From a virus (lineage: Duplodnaviria > Caudoviricetes), in IMG/VR virus record IMGVR_UViG_3300028888_000061, positions 64,001-128,000 of that record: 64,000 nucleotides of DNA. The stretch is one strand, 5' to 3'. The position numbers and the translations under genes were made by a program. Positions 4,661 to 39,989 of the stretch are shown here, piece after piece; position 1 is the first letter of the stretch, and each line of letters begins with the position of its first letter. Below the pieces are notes generated by a model. That model worked only from the letters and a program-made list of their open reading frames with translations. It was not told where the DNA came from and searched no databases.

Positions 4661-5461
4661 CTAAACCAAACCAGACACATGAAGCAAGTCCAGCACCACG
4701 TTCTTGTAAACATTATACATACTGTCATTATCCAGAGCGAGCTGTGCAATATCACCGAAGTCTTTCTTATACGGAGAGTAAACTCTCTCCACAGTCGGAG
4801 GCTTTCGGGAGAACTTCATTTTGGTATTCAATCTGGAATACCCCGTATCTCCGGCCTCATCATTATCGAATGCGACAACACACCGAGGCGCTGTCTGTGA
4901 AACAAGAGTGAGCATCTCTAAATTCATACCGGACACACCTCCCGATGCAATCGTATATGGATAAAAACACCGCAACCAGTCAGAGTCAAAAGCACTTTCA
5001 ACCAGTAACCAAGGCTTATGATACGGTTTGTCAGAAGTCAGAAATCCATAAGGTACGTATGGAAACGGCGTAAACGAGCGAAAACTTTTAGAAAACACTG
5101 AACGCACCGTCACACCATGAACTTTATCATCCATATCACGTGACGGCATAACAATCACAAGTTCCTCAGAGCAAACAAATTTGCGAAACCAGTCAGGTAA
5201 AAAATCACATGAATATGCTGTTTGTCCGTCAAGCAACCTATAACCCAGATGTGAAGCCCAATACAAATACTTGTCAGCACAGCCTGAATTAAGAATCCTT
5301 AAACGACCGTCAAGATTCCTGTAACGAATACACAAGTCATCCTTTGACGGAACTGTCGGTAATGATGCGAACAAATCCGTCATACGCTTCACAAGGTCAC
5401 ATGCGTCAGCTTTGGTGTAAGGAATGTATGAGTTTACGTCTGTGGATTCCATACAAAACAC
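4661..5461 (-). CDS. TOPRIM-domain DNA primase
   Basis: LLVESAFD and VVAFDNDEAG TOPRIM motifs, KDFGD C-terminal motif; no N-terminal zinc finger seen. Confidence 0.75.
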   Translation of the reverse strand: MFCMESTDVNSYIPYTKADACDLVKRMTDLFASLPTVPSKDDLCIRYRNLDGRLRILNSGCADKYLYWASHLGYRLLDGQTAYSCDFLPDWFRKFVCSEELVIVMPSRDMDDKVHGVTVRSVFSKSFRSFTPFPYVPYGFLTSDKPYHKPWLLVESAFDSDWLRCFYPYTIASGGVSGMNLEMLTLVSQTAPRCVVAFDNDEAGDTGYSRLNTKMKFSRKPPTVERVYSPYKKDFGDIAQLALDNDSMYNVYKNVVLDLLHVSGLV

Positions 5462-18683: not shown

Positions 18684-19422
18684 AAGATTCCTCGTCTTTA
18701 CAAGATTCCTCTTCGATACAGTCCCGAAGATGTTCAGACAAATCTTCTAGGTCATCAGCAAACGAACGTAGTTCAGAAATAAAATCCTGAATACACTCCA
18801 AATCACAGTCTTCAGGAGTATTGCCTCTCGCAAACTGAGACAAGGCTAAAAAAGTTCCATTCTCTCCTTCCATACTGTGCATGTTATTTAACAACGGAAT
18901 GTTGCTCACTCGTTTTGAATAACGATTATAAACGTCAAAAAGCCGTTTCAAATCATCGACAGTGACAACAACCGAATGACGCTTATAACCACACATAACA
19001 TGTTCCATCTTTGTGATGGAACCTATCGGACGTAACACGTATCCATCGACCGCAAGAACGTCCAGAGTGTTCGTGCTTTCATTGAAAGACACAATCACAG
19101 GGTGGTCAATGTCTGCGAAAATGTCCGAACGGTGACATCCCCCGTGAACATAAATTGCACTATGTTTAAGGTTTTCGACAAGGGACGCATCATCAATCTT
19201 ACGGATATAAACACCACAAGAAGACGATGAAACAAAGCCATCAATGATTGTGGAGAATGTGTCTATGTGCTCCAAATCGGAGAACTTGAGTTCGTGATTG
19301 AACACGTACTCTTGTTTTGCATTATGTACTGTTGGAAAGTCATCAAGAAGACGGCTTTTTCGGAGTGATTCATTATGGTTTCTGGTGTAGGACTTGATGA
19401 TGTTCTCAAAGCTGTAGTTCAT
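18646..19422 (-). CDS. Hypothetical protein
   Basis: AAGGAGG RBS; 258 aa with acidic tail. Confidence 0.65.
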   Translation of the reverse strand: MNYSFENIIKSYTRNHNESLRKSRLLDDFPTVHNAKQEYVFNHELKFSDLEHIDTFSTIIDGFVSSSSCGVYIRKIDDASLVENLKHSAIYVHGGCHRSDIFADIDHPVIVSFNESTNTLDVLAVDGYVLRPIGSITKMEHVMCGYKRHSVVVTVDDLKRLFDVYNRYSKRVSNIPLLNNMHSMEGENGTFLALSQFARGNTPEDCDLECIQDFISELRSFADDLEDLSEHLRDCIEEESCKDEESCEEEELEYDYCC

Positions 19423-19477
19423 GGTTGCCTCCTTATGGCATCATGTTCGACGGACACCCTATCCGTCAGACAAGCCC

Positions 19478-19518
19478 TTTATACCACAAGAGACAGAGCA
19501 CAAACGAAACAGCACCAC
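19478..19518 (-). promoter_or_regulatory. GGTGCTGT-box promoter
   Basis: GTGGTGCTGT-N25-TATAAA, preceded by TGTGG. Confidence 0.7.
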
Positions 19519-19519
19519 G

Positions 19520-19551
19520 AAAAAAGGGATGCAGAATTGCATCCCTTTTTT
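19520..19551 (-). terminator. Intrinsic terminator (bidirectional)
   Basis: AAAAAAGGGATGCA-GAAT-TGCATCCCTTTTTT. Confidence 0.8.
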
Positions 19552-19572
19552 CGACAGGAAAATGGACTACGA

Positions 19573-20307
19573 CTACATCACGAAGTTTCCTTCAAGTGCT
19601 TTTGTGTCAACCGGCGCGGCAGGAACTGCAGGAGCAGATGCCTGTACGTTCGACATCTGACCACCGTTTATGAATGAACGGTATTTGTCAATGTTAAACC
19701 TGACACCGACCGCATCAAACAACTCATTAACATGAGCACTCAGCGTATCAGACACCCATTTTTTAAACTCAGGAACCTGCTGATAGAGACATGCAGAAGA
19801 ACCTGCCATGGATTCAAGACCACCGGCGAATTGTCCAGTCGTAGGTGTAAGAATCCAATCTCGTGTCATAATATCGCCGTTCGCAAAACTGTCTGCCATG
19901 CGTTTGTTGTACGTCTGGAAATGAACACTCCAAACGTAGATACGAAGGTTTTTCAGACTAATATCGCTCACGATGGCACGAACAGGGTCAGCAAGACCTT
20001 CATACGACAAAACAGGGAACAGAATACGACGTGTGGTATCCACATCAGGATTACTTGACATGTGTTTACAGCATTCACCCTGGTCGCACAAAATCGTACC
20101 GAACCCTTTGAGATAGTGCTGCTGATATCCAAGACCACCGTCAGTCAGGAAGGCAATACGTGTTTTACGTTGAGGGTCAAGTTTGAGCTTGTTAATGGAA
20201 AATTCGTCAATGACAGAACCTGCCGGGATATACGATGCAATCCCACCAAAACCGATGCTGTCTGAACTGAGAAGCGATTTGACATCTACCATAGTGTTTT
20301 CGGACAT
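19573..20307 (-). CDS. Probable single-stranded DNA-binding protein (gp32-like)
   Basis: RIAFL...HY...C...CC zinc-type motif, RRILFPVLSY, YVWSV, DWILT; flexible C-tail. Confidence 0.55.
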   Translation of the reverse strand: MSENTMVDVKSLLSSDSIGFGGIASYIPAGSVIDEFSINKLKLDPQRKTRIAFLTDGGLGYQQHYLKGFGTILCDQGECCKHMSSNPDVDTTRRILFPVLSYEGLADPVRAIVSDISLKNLRIYVWSVHFQTYNKRMADSFANGDIMTRDWILTPTTGQFAGGLESMAGSSACLYQQVPEFKKWVSDTLSAHVNELFDAVGVRFNIDKYRSFINGGQMSNVQASAPAVPAAPVDTKALEGNFVM

Positions 20308-20476
20308 TTCTTTTTCTCCAAGCGAAAGTTAAGTTTTGTGTACTTATACGTGAGTAACCAAACAAAATCACGTACCCTGTCCAGAATACTGGAACTCGGA
20401 CGACACCGTAGCAAAGACCCGTGTGCCTCGACGTTTCTATGCGCATTCTCGAAACGTCTCAGCGAACACAAGAGGG

Positions 20477-20517
20477 GTTATAACACAGATTTGAACAGAT
20501 GTGAACAACAGCACCAC
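20477..20517 (-). promoter_or_regulatory. GGTGCTGT-box promoter (SSB)
   Basis: GTGGTGCTGT-N25-TATAAC, preceded by TGTGT. Confidence 0.7.
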
Positions 20518-20546
20518 GACAAATGCATTTTCTTTTCACACACGCA

Positions 20547-20978
20547 TCAGACACCCGTATGACCGAATCCTCCTGAACCACGCTCCGTGGTTTTATCGAC
20601 AGAAACCACCTGATGAAAATCCACGGTCTCATGCTTCATTACGACCATCTGTGCGATACGGTCTCCTATCGCAATGATAAACGGCTTCTGGCTCACATTG
20701 CACAGAATGACACCAACCTCACCCGTGTAATCAGAATCTACCGTTCCAGGGCTGTTTAAAACAAACACACCGTGTTTTGCAGCAAGACCACTTCTGGAAC
20801 GTATCTCGACATGATAACCTTTCGGAATGTCCATACGCAGTCCTGTACGAACGACACGAAACTCATTTGGTAAAAGCATCACTGCCTCGGCAGAACACAA
20901 ATCCGCACCTGCAGCTTCCTCTGTCGAATAAACCGGCAGCTTGGCTGTCCCAATCATTAACTCAATTCCAATGTCCAT
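20547..20978 (-). CDS. dut: Trimeric dUTPase
   Basis: AGADL, RSRSGLA, GTVDSDYTGEV, RIAQMV, RGSGGFGHTG. Confidence 0.96.
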   Translation of the reverse strand: MDIGIELMIGTAKLPVYSTEEAAGADLCSAEAVMLLPNEFRVVRTGLRMDIPKGYHVEIRSRSGLAAKHGVFVLNSPGTVDSDYTGEVGVILCNVSQKPFIIAIGDRIAQMVVMKHETVDFHQVVSVDKTTERGSGGFGHTGV

Positions 20979-20996
20979 GAAAATCTCCAAAAATGG

Positions 20997-21102
20997 AACA
21001 CGTCCGTAAAGGGGTCTAATTTGCGTTCTGACGCATTTTTTACTTTAGACGTGTACTTACTAGGGTAAGGTCGTAACTTTTTAGTACAGGGCAAATTTGA
21101 CC
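20997..21102. repeat. Dispersed ~105-bp element, copy 1 (core GTGTACTTACTAGGGT at 21051-21066)
   Basis: Exact 16-bp core and arm spacing shared with 22032-22136 and 39527-39611. Confidence 0.85.
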
Positions 21103-21119
21103 GCTCTGTGTTTGAAATG

Positions 21120-21860
21120 TCACAGGGTTATCTGACAGGGGATGGTCATCGTCTCTCTGATACGTTTTATCTGCGTCCACAAATTGCGTGCTTCCTGTTC
21201 GATTTCATCTTTTGTTCTGTCCTTGTTCCAGTCAAGGGTAATAACATGAGAGAACCGTGACAGATTTGAAGTGAGCTCTCGGTACTCTGCGATAAGTCCT
21301 TCCATGTACTCACGCGGTATGCTGCTCTCGCACTTCCGTTTTTCTTTCTCGCTGATACGCTGTGCAAGACGGCGCATCGAAGTGTCCGGTGAAACATCCA
21401 GGTAAACAAAGCATTGCGGGTACATAATCTCCCGAGACATGTTGTGGAACAGCTCAAAGTAGCAGTCTGCTTCATCATGCGTCATATCGCCGGACTTTTC
21501 GAGTTTGCACACAAAAATCGAATCCGACCAGATAGAGCTGTCGGCGACAGAGTTTTCTCCGTTCATTGCCATCGACTGAGCAAGACGTGTCTGCTCCAAG
21601 CGTTTGTTCAAAAGGTAAATCTGAATCGTAAACGCCCATCTCGGAACGTCCTTGTAGTACAAAGCAAGGAATGGATTCTTTGACCCCTCATCGTCTTCGG
21701 TAGCAGGCTCAAACATTGTCCTGCATGGTTTCCCTGTATCTTCTGCAATCGCTTTGGCTAAAGCACGACAAAATGAGGTCTTGCCGGAAGCAATGCACCC
21801 GATGACAGGAATATGAACTCCTGATGGATAAACGGCGCAGCGAAAATTTGAAATGGTCAT
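21120..21860 (-). CDS. Deoxynucleoside kinase (dNK/dAK-dGK family)
   Basis: IGCIASGKTS P-loop, FEP, FLALYYKDVPRWAFTIQIYLL, DSSIWSD, YLDVSP, R.CE lid; ATG at 21860 with AAGGAG. Confidence 0.9.
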   Translation of the reverse strand: MTISNFRCAVYPSGVHIPVIGCIASGKTSFCRALAKAIAEDTGKPCRTMFEPATEDDEGSKNPFLALYYKDVPRWAFTIQIYLLNKRLEQTRLAQSMAMNGENSVADSSIWSDSIFVCKLEKSGDMTHDEADCYFELFHNMSREIMYPQCFVYLDVSPDTSMRRLAQRISEKEKRKCESSIPREYMEGLIAEYRELTSNLSRFSHVITLDWNKDRTKDEIEQEARNLWTQIKRIRETMTIPCQITL

Positions 21861-22031
21861 TGGAATCTCCTTGCTTTGCAGTGAACAAAACAGCGAACAG
21901 TGTGTCCGCAACACTATGCCTGTCTGATACGAACAATGTGGTTTTAGCGTCAACAATAACAGGTGCATTCGTTCGACAAACACGATTAAGACAGAAAGTC
22001 ATTTTCGTCAACAAAGAACAGCAAAAAACAA

Positions 22032-22136
22032 AACACGTCCATAAAGGGGTCTAATTTGCCCTGTATGCGATTTTATGACACAGACGTGTACTTACTAGGG
22101 TATGTTCAAAATCGTCGTCAGAACGCAAATTTTGGC
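22032..22136. repeat. Dispersed element, copy 2 (core 22086-22101)
   Basis: AACACGTCCRTAAAGGGGTCTAATTTGC leader and 21-bp AGACGTGTACTTACTAGGGTA match copy 1. Confidence 0.85.
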
Positions 22137-22161
22137 TGCCATGCTGCGAAGTTTAAGGTTT

Positions 22162-22592
22162 GGTGCGGGCAGAGGGTTAAAACCCCACCAAAGAATTCGA
22201 GGTGCATATCCACAGGGTGCGGGCAGAAGGTTAAAATCAAAGTAACGACCACAAACAGGAGCGAAACAAGGGTCACGACTACGTTCTTGATGACAGCATT
22301 GTTCAAACCATGACTATGTTTTTCCACAGGATAATTTTTCAGGATGCGATGCTAGAGCATAAGTTACGACTACGATCTTAACGACAGGATGCTGATGCTT
22401 ACGCATGACATGACTTGACTACGTTCTTGATTACAGGTGAAGACTTTACAGGAATTCGAGCTTGAACGCTCTTTGACATGACTATGTTCTTTACTACAGG
22501 ATGTGATGCTTACGCATGGCATGGCATGACTATGTTCTTTCAACAGGATGATTTCAGGATGTGATGCTAAAACATGACATGGCATGACTAAG
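22162..22592. repeat. Iteron-like direct repeats
   Basis: Two copies of GGTGCGGGCAGARGGTTAAAA (22162, 22216); about seven copies of GACTAYGTTCTT-N-ACAGG interleaved with GATGYGATGCT; TTTTCCACA DnaA-box match near 22320. Confidence 0.75.
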
Positions 22593-22656
22593 AACGTCAC
22601 TTTAAGATTTTTGCAAACCTTCAAAAATACGTTCATCTCCTTGATTTTATTGACAT

Positions 22657-22830
22657 TTTAAATTTATTTCACTTTGGCATGTTTTGTGCAATATATTATA
22701 TAATCAAAGTTAATACAATCTAATCTTTCTCTCTTTCTCCTCACTTTCTATCGAAAGTGATTATATTGGATTACTTTTGATTATATAATATATTGCACAT
22801 AGTATGCCAAAATTTAAAAAATTTTTAAAA
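22657..22830. other. AT-rich long inverted repeat, candidate replication origin
   Basis: Perfect 24-bp arms 22685-22708/22776-22799 within ~70-bp imperfect arms; inner hairpin 22741-22760; sits at the gene-orientation and GT/AC composition switch. Confidence 0.6.
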
Positions 22831-23075
22831 GTGTTGAAATTGTTGAAGTTCAGACAGTTTTCAGAAAATTTTGAAAGCTGAAAAAGCTGAAGAAAAAGTG
22901 CGAATTTTGGTTGAGGACAAATTTTATGGAAGTTAATACGGCTGGCATGATTTTTGCTAGAAGACTTGTACGTAAGTACTCATCCACCTGTGAACTATGA
23001 TTTTGGTTAAAGACCGATTCAGGCATATTCCTGTTTTGCTTTACTTTGAATGGAATTTGCTGTATCAGAAAATTT

Positions 23076-23171
23076 GTGTGGCTAGGGTAGCTACCGAAAA
23101 GACGTAAAGCCTAACGTCCGCCACACTCTCTTTTTAGAGATGACTCAGGCACGTATTTGAGGCTGAATACC
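23076..23171 (+). ncRNA. Three-way-junction leader RNA, orphan copy 3
   Basis: GTGTGGC-TAG-GGTAGCTACC-GAAAA-GACGT(AAAGCCTA)ACGTC-C-GCCACAC ... AGGCACGTATTTGAGGCTGAATACC. Confidence 0.65.
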
Positions 23172-23187
23172 GTTAAAATTTCACGCC

Positions 23188-24051
23188 TTGAACTTTAACA
23201 GATGCGATTGGGAAACCCACCGCTTTCGTATTTCCTGTATGGAGTGTTTTATGTTCGAGACTGCACGCACAGATACTTCCTGTGCATCAAAGACTTTGTT
23301 TTCGATGGCTGTAAAGATTTGTGGTATACAGACATTGATAACTGAGTTAGGTACTTTGGTATCATCCAAGGACGTTGGAGCTTCCTGTGACGATAATGCT
23401 GATGAACTGTTTACCTCGGATGTTCAGTTTGTTGGAATCAAGCAGAGGCCATTGAATGAGTCTGTCTGTTCTGCATTACGGAGAGAATCCTGGTGTCTGT
23501 TGAATCATGTTCCAATTCCTCTGTCGCTTGAATTTTACAGAGACCTTCAAAGTGCTACTTTTGAGTTTGGTTCTTTTCTGAACGATACCAGGACTTCATC
23601 TGTTTCTTCTTGTCCCATTGGAAAATTTCGTTCGTCGAAGTTGTTTTTCTCTCTTGACCTTTATCGTGATTTTGCCATTTCTCGTTCCGCTTCTGAGAAT
23701 GGCGACTGTCGCCTTTATCTGTCGATTTCCAACATCTTGTCCCAATGGGATACCTCAATTTTTGAAACGCTTCTTAATGAATCGGATGTCACCTCGATAT
23801 CTTACGCGCTCTCGCAGCTTGTCGGTAAAAAAGAATCTGCTTTAGAACTCAGTAATGGAACGCAGAAGGCTCTTTATCGTTACGTGCTCGCTTTCCGCTC
23901 GGCTTTACCTGATAGTTATCTCCGCCTGTTCTCTTACCGGTCAAAGTACGTTGCGTTCTATCCGTACAAAACTTTAAAGCTCCTTGGATTTCCTCCTGTT
24001 GTTGAATTTGAAGGGATGATTAAGAATAACTTACTTGGTATTGTGGAGTAA
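23188..24051 (+). CDS. Hypothetical protein, first gene right of the candidate origin
   Basis: Long ORF; start uncertain (ATG 23251 has an upstream GGAG). Confidence 0.6.
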   Translation: MNFNRCDWETHRFRISCMECFMFETARTDTSCASKTLFSMAVKICGIQTLITELGTLVSSKDVGASCDDNADELFTSDVQFVGIKQRPLNESVCSALRRESWCLLNHVPIPLSLEFYRDLQSATFEFGSFLNDTRTSSVSSCPIGKFRSSKLFFSLDLYRDFAISRSASENGDCRLYLSISNILSQWDTSIFETLLNESDVTSISYALSQLVGKKESALELSNGTQKALYRYVLAFRSALPDSYLRLFSYRSKYVAFYPYKTLKLLGFPPVVEFEGMIKNNLLGIVE

Positions 24052-24159
24052 GAAGGATTTTGTTTGGCTTGTGGCATTTGCTTTTATCAGACTGATGGTA
24101 TGGGTTTTTGCCCAATCAAAGTTGTGAGCAGGAAACCCCCACGTTTGGAGAATTTGAGT

Positions 24160-25689
24160 ATGGCAAAACGTAAAACGAAGAGTGATGAAATTGTGAGTAC
24201 GGTTGCATTGGAAACCCCTGTGGAGAACATGGAAACCTCTGTGGAAACCCCTGTAAGGAAATCGAAAAAGGTTAAGACCGAGAAAACGGAGAAGACCGAG
24301 AAGACCGAGAAGACAGAGAAGACAGAGAAGACGGCATGTCAGTCATCTGATGTGGAGTCTTTATCTCTTGTTGCTGATTCAGAAGTTCAGGCAACTGAAC
24401 CTCAGGAGTCATTGCATGACGCTACGGAAACCGCAACCGAGGAACCTGAACCTTTCCGTATTGCTGCTGTTCCCGGTAAACCGCAAGAGTCTAACGATGA
24501 TGATTCTGTGATACAGCTTGTACCAGATACGGATGCTCAAACACAAGCAGAGGCGGATGCTGAGCAGGAACCTTTCCGTGTGGTTGATGTTCCGCCAAAC
24601 AGCATATCGTCGGATGATTACGATGCACGTCAGAGCATTAGCGTACCTGTTACGGAGAAACGTAAGGATGAGGGTTATCTTCGGTTAAACAAACCGAAAC
24701 TCGGTATGCTTATGGTTAAACCAGAACTTGAGGATTCTGTCGAAAGCAATGATGTTTCCTTAGTCGGTGAGTCTGATGAGAATGATTCCGATGAAAATCA
24801 GCCTGATGCAGAGGATGCTGCACAGCAGGATATGGATGATTTCTTTGTCGTTCACAGGCATGTGTCTGCTGATGATGTTCCGCAGGATTGTGCTGATTCG
24901 GGTGAACCTGATGAAATGATTCCTGATGAACCTGATGAACCTGATGAACTGGATGATTTTACTGATGAGCCGAGTGATTATTTGGATGACGATGACGTGG
25001 AGGATGAACCTTGTGACCAGGATAATTCCTCTTATCCATCGTGTCTTGAACCACCTGCCTGTCCTGTGTTTGTTTGTAAGGGTGTTTTTGACTTACCGTT
25101 CGTCAAAAAATCTTCGTCAGACAAGTGTTATCTTGTACCTGATGGAAAGAATGAAAAGTTGCGTTTCGAGCGTTCTTACACGGTGAAGAAATCACGTCCT
25201 TACAGACGTGATTTGAACTATGAGCTTGAGGATACGTGTATCGCTGATATGCCTTATTACTGCTTCGACGGTCACGTTGTAGGCATGGCTCACGAGTTCG
25301 ACCCACTGTCCGGGATGTACATGAATGAGGTTTACACGACACGCGGTGTGTATTCTTTCAGAACGTGTTCAGAATTACCTGAGCGTTCAGGTTCGTATGA
25401 TGACTTTTTTCAGACGATTTTGAACACCCTCATTCTCTACGATGCAGAGTTTACTCCGTTATGTGATTTGTCTGGGTATGACTGTACTTCTGTGGACAGT
25501 GAATGCGATGACATTTCCGTTGTGTGTATGGGTGTGCTTGAGGTGTGTGGTGTTCGTTATGGTATGCGTTCCGACTGCACAGTTGATTTTGAAAGCGTGA
25601 TTAGAGCTTTGTGGGAAATCATAAATACAGATGACTCCGATGAAGACCTTGGATTTTATCGTGCGTATTTTAAACTTTTAGGAGACTGA
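24160..25689 (+). CDS. Highly acidic low-complexity protein
   Basis: GGAG RBS before ATG 24160; basic N-terminus, KTE repeats, long D/E-rich region. Confidence 0.7.
   Translation: MAKRKTKSDEIVSTVALETPVENMETSVETPVRKSKKVKTEKTEKTEKTEKTEKTEKTACQSSDVESLSLVADSEVQATEPQESLHDATETATEEPEPFRIAAVPGKPQESNDDDSVIQLVPDTDAQTQAEADAEQEPFRVVDVPPNSISSDDYDARQSISVPVTEKRKDEGYLRLNKPKLGMLMVKPELEDSVESNDVSLVGESDENDSDENQPDAEDAAQQDMDDFFVVHRHVSADDVPQDCADSGEPDEMIPDEPDEPDELDDFTDEPSDYLDDDDVEDEPCDQDNSSYPSCLEPPACPVFVCKGVFDLPFVKKSSSDKCYLVPDGKNEKLRFERSYTVKKSRPYRRDLNYELEDTCIADMPYYCFDGHVVGMAHEFDPLSGMYMNEVYTTRGVYSFRTCSELPERSGSYDDFFQTILNTLILYDAEFTPLCDLSGYDCTSVDSECDDISVVCMGVLEVCGVRYGMRSDCTVDFESVIRALWEIINTDDSDEDLGFYRAYFKLLGD
24274..24333 (+). 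repeat. 9-bp coding tandem repeat (KTE x6-7)
   Basis: AARACNGAG units with synonymous variation. Confidence 0.85.
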
Positions 25690-25690
25690 G

Positions 25691-25924
25691 ATGAAAAAAG
25701 ATAACGTGTTTTCCTATGTGTATGAGAATACCGACTTGTCTGTGTTCCATGAGTATCCGAATAATGTGTCCATCGTGTGTTCTGACGGTAGTGTTCAGAA
25801 CATTGTGAACATGCACTCAAAGTCTCTTGGCGAGGTGATTACTAATGTGAACGCTCAAGACATTACGTTTTTTGAGTTTGACCGAGAGGGTGTTCAGACG
25901 GTAGTTGTGCTTCCTGATAACTGA
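25691..25924 (+). CDS. Hypothetical protein
   Basis: AGGAG RBS; follows the acidic protein directly. Confidence 0.6.
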   Translation: MKKDNVFSYVYENTDLSVFHEYPNNVSIVCSDGSVQNIVNMHSKSLGEVITNVNAQDITFFEFDREGVQTVVVLPDN

Positions 25925-25929
25925 CTTTC

Positions 25930-25971
25930 GTGGTGCTGTGTGTTCTGGTTACTTTAGTTTTGTGTTAAAAG
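25930..25971 (+). promoter_or_regulatory. GGTGCTGT-box promoter (recA)
   Basis: GTGGTGCTGT-N26-TAAAAG, preceded by TGTGT. Confidence 0.6.
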
Positions 25972-26037
25972 GCATGATGCGGTAAAGGTGTCATGCCTTT
26001 GTTTTTACTGTCCCATTTACTTTTGTTCGGAGAAGTT

Positions 26038-27333
26038 ATGCCAAGAGTGTCTGCAAAAAGTACGGTAAAGAAGAGTTCATCACGTGGTGCGAAGAAGGAA
26101 ACGTCATCTGCTGCGGTTGAAAAGAGAACCCGTAAATCCAGTAAACCAAGCAAACAAGTCGCAAAGGAAGTTGTAAATGACACAGAAGAAATCATTGAGG
26201 AGACTCTTACAGAAATAACAGAAGACGGTGAGCAGGTTTCGGTTCGTGTAACGAATGATTCCAATGCCGGTAAGGATGTTCAGATTGAGGATTCTGAGTG
26301 GAATGAGGATAATCAGAGAGACTTGGAAGCCTTTAACGCTATGCCAGAGGCACGCAGGAAGTACTATGACAATTTGACGGCTGCGGTGCTTCGAGACCGT
26401 AAGTATATCAAGTCTGGCAGTTTCGTTCTCGACGCAATCCTGTCTGATGGTCAAGGAATTCCTACAGGAACGTTCATTGAGCTGACTGCACCGTATGCCG
26501 TCGGCAAATCAAGTCTTCTTTTGTTCATGTGTAAGAATCTTTGTGACCAAGGATATCGTTGTGCTTACATCGACACAGAGCGTGGACTGAACGACAAACA
26601 GATTGCGAGTTTTGGGCTTACGAATCATACCAAGTCTCGTATGTTCCTGCCGATGACTATCGACACGTTTGAAGAAATTGACGAGTTCTTATGCAATGCT
26701 TTGACTGATGATACGTTGAAATTTATCGTTGTCGATTCTTTAACGGCTGCTTCTGCGTCCGATATGATTGAGAAGGAAACTGGTCAGAATCAGACATTGG
26801 CTATCCATGCACGTACAATTTCTGCGTTCTTGCGACGGTTTAGGTCTAAGTTCGGCACATCCGACAAGACTATTTTCTTTGTGGCACAAAACCGAAAGCA
26901 GTTTACTCAGTACGGTGCACAGGACGGTGCAGCCGGTGGCGAGGCACAAAAGCATTACATGGACATCACTATCCGGATGAAATTAAAGGACAAGCTGACC
27001 AGAAAAATAAAAGGCTCTACCGAGAAGCAGCAGTATGGAACGATATGCACGATTATGTGTGACCCAAAGAACCGTTTCTGCAGTCCACGTATTCCGATGA
27101 GCATCGCTATCGTGTGGGGCAAGGGTGTTTCAAATGCAGCCGCTCTTTATGACGCTTTAGTGAGTCAGGGAAAAATCACGCAGAAAGGTTCTTTTTATGT
27201 GATTGAGGGCGTCGATGGACGTGAAGAGCAGTTTCGTGGTCAGGACGCCGTCACGTTCTATATCTCACAGCATTCGGATTATTATTTAAGGCTTGTTGAA
27301 CGTCTTGGTGGTATCCGGCTACCAAAGGTGTAA
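26038..27333 (+). CDS. recA: RecA/UvsX recombinase with long N-terminal extension
   Basis: SGSFVLDAIL.GIPTG, Walker A APYAVGKS, YIDTE, IVVDSL, AQNR, AGGEAQKHY, KNRF. Confidence 0.9.
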   Translation: MPRVSAKSTVKKSSSRGAKKETSSAAVEKRTRKSSKPSKQVAKEVVNDTEEIIEETLTEITEDGEQVSVRVTNDSNAGKDVQIEDSEWNEDNQRDLEAFNAMPEARRKYYDNLTAAVLRDRKYIKSGSFVLDAILSDGQGIPTGTFIELTAPYAVGKSSLLLFMCKNLCDQGYRCAYIDTERGLNDKQIASFGLTNHTKSRMFLPMTIDTFEEIDEFLCNALTDDTLKFIVVDSLTAASASDMIEKETGQNQTLAIHARTISAFLRRFRSKFGTSDKTIFFVAQNRKQFTQYGAQDGAAGGEAQKHYMDITIRMKLKDKLTRKIKGSTEKQQYGTICTIMCDPKNRFCSPRIPMSIAIVWGKGVSNAAALYDALVSQGKITQKGSFYVIEGVDGREEQFRGQDAVTFYISQHSDYYLRLVERLGGIRLPKV

Positions 27334-39423: not shown

Positions 39424-39526
39424 GCTTTAGTCTCCTGAAATGTGTCCCACACTCCCGTATATTGTCTGATATCGTGTTTACACTAAGTGCTTCAAGCGCA
39501 AAACAAAAAATCGCGTAGAACAGCTC

Positions 39527-39611
39527 AAATTTGCTCTCTACGCGATTTTTTGTTCCATAGGTGTACTTACTAGGGTGATGCCGTAACTTTTTCGTACAGG
39601 TTAAATTTTGC
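39527..39611. repeat. Dispersed element, copy 3 (core 39561-39576)
   Basis: Same 16-bp core; AATTTGC 33 bp before and AAATTT 27 bp after, as in copy 1; left arm also forms an 18-bp hairpin with 39502-39519. Confidence 0.8.
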
Positions 39612-39629
39612 TACTCTCGTGAGGATGTT

Positions 39630-39989
39630 TTACGAAGCAACGCCACCTGCATACTTGAGTGATACGGTCATCAGGTCTTTATCCACAAGCATGTAAAACT
39701 TGAAGTAGATGGAGCGAGACTTTACGTCAACCGTGTATTCGCTCGTTTGCAAAATCATGCCGTCTATTGCGTTTATGCAGTTACGTATTTCTGCATGAAT
39801 TTCACGAAGTGTGACCTGATTCAATGGTGCGTATTTGAACTTGTGCAAATTGCTGCCGAAATTCGGGTAGTACGGTCTTGTGCCTTTTGGTGTGTTCAAT
39901 ATATACGCAAGGTATTCACGGACGGCATCAGAACCTGTATCCCATACAAAGTTTCTGTTGTGGTATTTTTCAGAGAATGTACGTAGCAT
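39630..39989 (-). CDS. Baseplate wedge subunit gp25-like
   Basis: ILNTPKGTRPYYPNFGSNL motif; 119 aa. Confidence 0.85.
   Translation of the reverse strand: MLRTFSEKYHNRNFVWDTGSDAVREYLAYILNTPKGTRPYYPNFGSNLHKFKYAPLNQVTLREIHAEIRNCINAIDGMILQTSEYTVDVKSRSIYFKFYMLVDKDLMTVSLKYAGGVAS

Follow-up and report, generated by a model that had tools for sequence, protein, structure and literature searches.

A dispersed intergenic element with interchangeable halves brackets the deoxynucleoside kinase gene of an uncultured ruminant-gut phage

The DNA analysed here, referred to as the window, is a 64,000-bp stretch (bases 64001–128000) of a 138,361-bp IMG/VR virus record (G000), and encodes among others a gp25-like baseplate gene, a tail protein and a UvsX-like recombinase. 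DNA near-identical to the window was found in sheep, bovine and goat gut metagenome runs, and near-identical proteins are carried by contigs of 238 kb, 237 kb and 234 kb; a blastn search of GenBank phages returned zero matches. The relatives used for comparison were the IMG/VR contigs G001 (227,618 bp, 96% complete), G002, G003, G004 and G005, together with two metagenome contigs of 238 and 243 kb; JAEEGK010000061.1 (abbreviated JAEEGK in the names of element copies) and Ga0233376_1000001 are among the contigs bearing copies of the element described below.

A deoxynucleoside kinase (dNK) gene and the dUTPase gene downstream of it lie on the minus strand of the window, and dNK sits between two directly oriented copies, c and d, of a repeated element (Table 1). 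By tblastn dNK is 97% identical in G005 and 78–79% identical at the amino acid level in G001, and it has no relative in the collection of bacterial and archaeal reference genomes that was searched. The first-pass annotation of this DNA had reported a shared leader and a 21-bp core on both sides of the gene, in direct orientation and 1035 bp apart, with complementary arms swapped across dNK, and we confirmed these observations. The core, AGACGTGTACTTACTAGGGTA, is present as an exact 21-mer on the plus strand in both copies; a third core, with three mismatches, belongs to copy e further along the window, and no core repeats were expected in 100 shuffles. The common leader spans 27 nt (20998–21024 and 22033–22059) and falls within a direct repeat of 84 nt (20989–21072 and 22024–22107) that is 76% identical overall. 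Two inverted repeats connect the opposite ends of the pair: the left arm of copy c is complementary to the right arm of copy d at 16/16 positions, and the segment 21085–21110 is complementary to 22040–22065 over 26 nt at 85% (13 exact, 17/18 when extended). It had also been noted that no recombinase was visible in the window, which is correct for site-specific enzymes but overlooks the general UvsX/RecA-like recombinase, the sole recombinase that we found.

The gene-poor gap at 22160–22600, which separates the divergent dNK and 287-aa/541-aa operons, is packed with iteron-like direct repeats of 21-, 28- and 36-nt families (2–4 copies each) and may be an origin or a regulatory region. Beyond it, at 23075–23140 (+), a match to the int-alpA RNA (Rfam RF02996; 37.5 bits against a gathering score of 35.8) sits just upstream of the plus-strand gene at 23188, in a phage record without an integrase.

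Table 1. Genes, element copies and candidate promoter discussed in the text. Coordinates are window positions unless marked as record positions.
Feature	Position	Strand	Details
dUTPase gene, downstream of dNK	20547–20981	−	PF00692, E 2.8e-31
Deoxynucleoside kinase (dNK) gene, 247 aa	21120–21863	−	PF01712, E 1.1e-33; strong Shine-Dalgarno
UvsX/RecA-like general recombinase	25993–27333	+	phrog_97, E 2.8e-31
Element copy c, between dUTPase and dNK	20983–21124	+	nhmmer E 1.5e-36
Copy c, leader	20998–21016		
Copy c, left arm	21018–21033		class A
Copy c, small hairpin	21022–21035		within the left arm
Copy c, T run	21036–21041		
Copy c, core	21047–21067	+	
Copy c, conserved right block	21068–21102		
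Copy c, right arm	21084–21102		class B′
Element copy d, upstream of dNK	22018–22155	+	nhmmer E 1e-29
Copy d, leader	22033–22051		
Copy d, left arm	22053–22065		class B
Copy d, core	22082–22102	+	
Copy d, right arm	22116–22131		class A′
Candidate dNK promoter	21985–22027	−	degenerate box 22019–22027 and extended −10-like site 21985–21993; inferred by comparison with 22 boxes
Element copy e, between gp25-like baseplate gene and 670-aa gene	39494–39632	+	
Copy e, core	39557–39577		
Full element copy (record position)	11261		
Full element copy (record position)	41098	−	
Full element copy (record position)	42850		
Full element copy (record position)	84983		copy c
Full element copy (record position)	86018		copy d
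Full element copy (record position)	103494		copy e

A profile built from the copies identified six full elements and one half copy in the record, and further copies in every relative (G001, G002, G003, G004, G005, JAEEGK010000061.1 and Ga0233376_1000001). The core 19-mer had zero matches in 185,579 bacterial and archaeal reference genomes, no Rfam family matched the element, and a scan with the right-block pattern returned the known relatives only, plus one chance match in coding sequence. The element is a dispersed, intergenic sequence of ~135 bp that is specific to a clade of large ruminant-gut myoviruses. Contigs from three DNA runs broke at the element, where depth was 4–7 times that of the flanks. 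Copies also cluster: besides c and d, copies f and b are inverted relative to each other at a distance of 1.6 kb, and 263 bp separate two copies in G001. A ~200-nt non-coding repeat outside the window (G000:C1:40893-41100) adjoins copy f and has six copies in G002 at 76–87% identity; it could be an RNA gene family.

Read along the core strand, the element opens with a left module of one of two kinds, either a 7-bp GC-rich hairpin (GCGTAGA/TCTACGC) flanked by A and T runs or the conserved leader, whose first seven bases, ACACGTC, pair with GACGTGT at the start of the core. An arm with a conserved short motif follows, then a T run and the core, after which the right module is either a conserved block ending in a B′ arm or an inverted copy of the left module that provides an A′ arm (copy d and seven others). 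The stem between leader and core is paired at 7/7 positions in five copies, and the G002 copy G002_37585 carries a compensatory A-T pair; in nearly all copies the hairpin, whether leader–core or GC-rich, is followed on the minus strand by a U-rich tract. The leader of copy c pairs with the start of its core in folds of both strands (z −2.3 on the minus strand), and its small hairpin and T run were flagged on the plus strand. Copy d has a complete 7/7 leader–core stem and a U-rich tail on the minus strand, and gave no folding signal (z 0.1 and 0.5). The GC-rich hairpin of copy e, between A and T runs at 39513–39543, has a fold of −38 kcal/mol with a z of −4.6 on both strands and is a predicted bidirectional terminator. 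RNAalifold applied to all 22 non-redundant copies returned no consensus structure on either strand. The invariant portion of the element consists of the right half of the core and the right block, ~45 nt together, which a plain terminator does not need. A second type of element has the same left module and its inverted copy around a different central sequence (G000:C1:137235-137298 (−) and G001:C1:141003-141064), and the module of arm and T run is therefore a reusable unit between which the "core" can vary.

The right arm abuts the 3′ end of an opposite-strand gene in 4/6 G000 copies and the left end faces the start of the next gene, so that each copy, followed in gene direction, presents the end of a gene, the right arm, the core, the terminator hairpin and then a promoter or a ribosome-binding site. 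There is no consensus promoter within the element, which was compared in turn with sigma-70, sigma-54, Bacteroidetes-type and T7-like promoters and matched none of them consistently; the phage does not encode a sigma70_r2 domain. A miniature transposable element (MITE) with target-site duplication was likewise rejected, as no duplication is seen in the flanks and the supposed end falls within the terminator hairpin. A phage-specific promoter class consists of an RTGGTGCTG box and, ~22 nt further on, an extended −10 (TGnTAnnnT). The record contains 22 such boxes; examples in the window lie at 4691, 9242, 10624, 15350, 19510 and 20509 on the minus strand and at 25930 on the plus strand. Such a box often stands directly behind a T-rich terminator tail, and one directly follows copy b. 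Besides the candidate dNK promoter of Table 1, a second candidate was placed at about 21919–21960. A high-depth contig from an RNA run ends at 20443, near the start predicted for the box at 20509, and RNA run X20 yielded small contigs only, one of which (21040–21223) spans the dNK 3′ end, the right arm and the core, with the reservation that contig bounds are not RNA ends. The predicted terminator of copy c lies directly before the dUTPase ribosome-binding site, which begins ~10 nt past the leader with no separate promoter in between; expression of dUTPase thus requires either read-through or an unrecognised promoter.

We tabulated the left and right arms of the 22 non-redundant copies. These fall into two main complementary classes, A/A′ and B/B′, in addition to hairpin-type left arms, and all four left/right combinations occur: A–A′ in four copies (two JAEEGK, two G001), B–B′ in another four (a, b, G002_49808 and JAEEGK_10434), A–B′ in copy c and G002_37585, and B–A′ in copy d and G001_3513. 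B/B′ is the commonest form in the element family. The A arm of G002_37585 matches the A′ arm of the window at 16/16 positions and the two JAEEGK A arms match it at 14, while B arms match every B′ arm at 12–16. Because an A arm from another genome fits the A′ arm of the window perfectly, complementarity belongs to the class and not to the pair c/d, and the exact cross-matches around dNK reflect the consensus of each class rather than a private relation between the two copies. Across the family, arms are on average scarcely more complementary within an element (7.8) than between elements (6.7); the own-pair scores of copies c and d are 10 and 7, as against 16 for each of their cross pairs.

Comparison of copies also revealed mosaic structure. 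For at least 28 nt the left half of copy c is the same as that of G002_37585, and for 36 nt the right half is the same as that of copy a; the positional orthologues f (G000) and JAEEGK_13138 are unlike in both arms. Three G000 and three JAEEGK copies have cores identical at 21/21 positions within flanks that are only 70–75% identical. Beside the right arm of copy b there is an unrelated 378-aa gene in JAEEGK010000061.1 versus a 238-aa gene in G000, and an intergenic gap that is free of the element in G000 contains one in JAEEGK010000061.1. Within the region around b and f (JAEEGK010000061.1:32866-46939 versus G000:C1:40-55 kb) one gene is inverted, a gene whose G000 homologue lies ~87 kb away is inserted, and another gene is replaced non-homologously. 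The relatives that were compared provided no clean pair of two-element and one-element alleles.

The dNK locus itself could be followed in two relatives. G005 is collinear with the window at the locus (~85% identity) and also has dNK bracketed by two elements; the genes persist, but the cores of both elements have decayed to 76–81% identity. Relative to the window, the c-left and d-right arms of G005 carry changes at no fewer than five positions and are still complementary at 17/20, whereas its d-left arm is not of class B and has no match to c-right, so that only the A:A′ cross-pairing is preserved. This coordinated change is accounted for by the change of all left modules in that lineage and by d-right being an inverted left module, and selection for pairing is not required. 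An 8.6-kb segment (window 18700–27329) comprising dUTPase, dNK, the repeat-rich gap, the 541-aa gene and uvsX is inverted in G005; its end points are not at element copies, and rearrangements among the relatives do not all end at elements. In G001, dNK (G001:C1:43926-44759) lies directly upstream of uvsX in the order 541-aa gene, dNK, uvsX, 244-aa gene, 188-aa gene on one strand, with a plain terminator and no adjoining element, and dUTPase is ~95 kb from dNK, also without an element. The placement in G001 marks dNK as an old resident that has changed position, but in a phage clade whose gene order is heavily reshuffled throughout.

The first-pass annotation had inferred that a circle carrying dNK and B-core-B′ integrated into an A-core-A′ site through an attC-like cassette system. 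As far as the available data allow this to be tested, the integration reading is unsupported, and the three outcomes that the annotation itself had listed as refuting were observed: the arms assort freely, and neither an empty site nor a circle junction was found. Tyrosine recombinases (PF00589) were absent from G000, the 96% complete G001 and G002 in searches whose controls responded; serine recombinases (PF00239) were absent from G000 and G001, and Y1 (RAYT/TnpA) transposases (PF01797) from G000, G001 and G002. No available relative lacks dNK and has dUTPase beside a single A-core-A′ element. Among assembled contigs, none from four runs skipped dNK and none from runs X2, X3 and X4 joined 21046 to 22082; no clean junction of a 1035-bp circle was recovered. 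A single 190-nt contig from run X4 joins the d-left arm to the core and B′, as a back-joint of 1035 would; since its first 93 nt do not come from upstream of dNK and the contig has the same depth as the genome, it most likely represents another locus.

On balance we consider it somewhat more likely than not that the repeats are a dispersed terminator or boundary element, comparable to the promoter-early stem-loops (PeSLs) of T4-type phages, whose halves are shuffled by homologous recombination. Every copy, read in gene direction, ends in a hairpin and U tract predicted to act as an intrinsic terminator, and dNK would form an ordinary, self-contained transcription unit composed of terminator d, a promoter, the gene and terminator c, with the degenerate box behind copy d presumably serving it. 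The "swapped arms" would then arise because left and right modules exist in two interchangeable classes that have been reshuffled among copies, and the occurrence of arms in every combination is what likens the family to PeSLs rather than to a dedicated integration system. For the reshuffling we infer as the likely route the one described for T4-type PeSLs, in which copies recombine homologously or convert one another by way of their common core, with the UvsX-like recombinase as the likely agent of exchange between copies. Three observations sit less easily with this account: the invariant ~45 nt exceed what a plain terminator needs, the terminator predicted in copy c precedes dUTPase without an intervening promoter, and rearrangements such as the 8.6-kb inversion have end points away from the element.

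The main rival is a narrower version of the same process, namely one reciprocal homologous exchange within the 21-bp core between a resident A-core-A′ and a B-core-B′ present together with dNK on either a circle or a second copy of the genome, the equivalent of PeSL mini-circle integration, which would predate the split of G000 and G005. Such an exchange would yield exactly the observed arrangement, A-core-B′ ... B-core-A′ in direct orientation, both parental types are known as solo elements in relatives, dNK is elsewhere in G001, a UvsX-like recombinase is present and the X4 contig has a junction of the anticipated kind. We nevertheless judge it unlikely, given that G005 keeps only the A:A′ cross-pairing, that A–B′ and B–A′ hybrids also occur singly at other loci, that the X4 contig looks like another locus and that the empty site was not encountered. 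We estimate from the class frequencies that an adjacent reciprocal A–B′/B–A′ pair would arise by chance in only a few percent of cases, and a single exchange therefore stays a reasonable account of the pair c/d, although it is neither demonstrated nor needed. The same arrangement has a formal analogy to attL (A-core-B′) and attR (B-core-A′), which is the point in favour of a dedicated site-specific cassette system of the integron or lambda att type with the 21-bp core as crossover site; the free assortment of arms, the absence of tyrosine and serine recombinases and Y1 transposases from the genomes searched, and the failure to find a cassette array, an empty site or a circle make this the least credible of the readings. 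Somewhat better placed, though still decidedly improbable, is the proposal that the element is a new recombination or mobility site of very large phages, at which a putative phage factor reads the core and foldable arms as single-stranded DNA or RNA; genes, dNK for one, would be moved or exchanged individually from one boundary site to another with no known integrase or transposase involved.

Two further readings concern protein binding and RNA pairing. As its alternative, the first-pass annotation had proposed a single motif that takes the forms A and B around a fixed core, and this comes closer to what the element family shows than the integration reading does. In its fuller form, a phage protein that binds DNA, for instance an insulator, a transcription activator or a factor of the nucleoid or of replication, would recognise arms and core, with A and B as two affinity variants of one motif and the symmetry imposed by a dimeric or looping protein. 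Conservation of the arm classes across genomes (G000 and G002 have the same A arm, and G001 retains 14/16 of A′), the perfect conservation of six cores within less conserved flanks and the lack of covariation demanding left–right pairing of arms all speak for such sites, but no candidate protein was identified, the arms are ~76 bp apart and in G005 both cores next to dNK have decayed although the genes persist, and we regard this reading as rather improbable. Long-range RNA pairing of A with A′ and B with B′, by which the dNK message would be looped for processing or regulation (for example as an RNase III site), could explain why c-left and d-right changed together between G000 and G005, and transition-type mismatches between arms are mostly G.T on the core strand (21 versus 6). 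This appears very unlikely to us, as the lineage-wide change of left modules is the simpler account, B:B′ pairing is lost in G005, the G.T excess stems from one or two recurrent positions in the family and copy d lacks a folding signal.

The likeness to T4-type promoter/stem-loop cassettes drawn in the first-pass annotation holds as an analogy, and can be specified by reference to the published descriptions of PeSLs (Arbiol et al. 2010, PMC2839356; Comeau et al. 2014, PMC4122927). When flanking PeSL cassettes exchange, the products include chimeric cassettes as well as insertions and deletions, and mini-circles are formed too (PMC2839356). PeSLs and the rumen phage element are alike in being short composite regulatory motifs that occur between genes in several copies and contain a terminator stem-loop (here a predicted one); both often bracket single small or non-essential genes, have chimeric halves among their copies and reside in phages with UvsX-type recombination. 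In contrast, the rumen phage element has no sequence relation to PeSLs, it does not share their internal strong sigma-70-like promoter, a box-type promoter lying outside it after some copies only (b, and a degenerate one after d), and it has an invariant 21-bp core, a 45-nt block and quasi-palindromic arms in two classes; mini-circles and presence/absence alleles are not seen for it in the assembled contigs.

Other known systems resemble the element in part. Integron attC sites share imperfect palindromes flanking a gene and variable arms around a conserved feature, but the rumen phage has neither an IntI-type integrase nor a cassette array, the own arms of copies c and d do not pair within one site, dNK appears to have its own (candidate) promoter, and the crossover would be central instead of at the edge of the site. 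REP/BIME sequences are likewise dispersed between genes, where they follow gene ends; they consist of arm motifs in inverted arrangement joined by a conserved linker, and they are tied to transcript termination or stability, as predicted for the rumen element, which differs in being phage-borne, restricted to one phage clade and unaccompanied by a RAYT/Y1 transposase in the genomes searched. Lambda attL and attR have the same formal layout of a common core with exchanged flanking arms; here, however, there is no integrase, and the same phage genomes contain attB-like as well as attP-like forms at scattered positions.

The present evidence reveals no new cassette-integration system. For uncultured ruminant-gut phages of ~230–240 kb the element would instead parallel the portable-homology cassettes of T4-type phages, in the form of a more elaborate and previously undescribed motif. 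Comparison of its copies flags an invariant 45-nt block beyond the needs of a plain terminator, and the element offers a handle on how mosaic phage genomes are punctuated and reshuffled.
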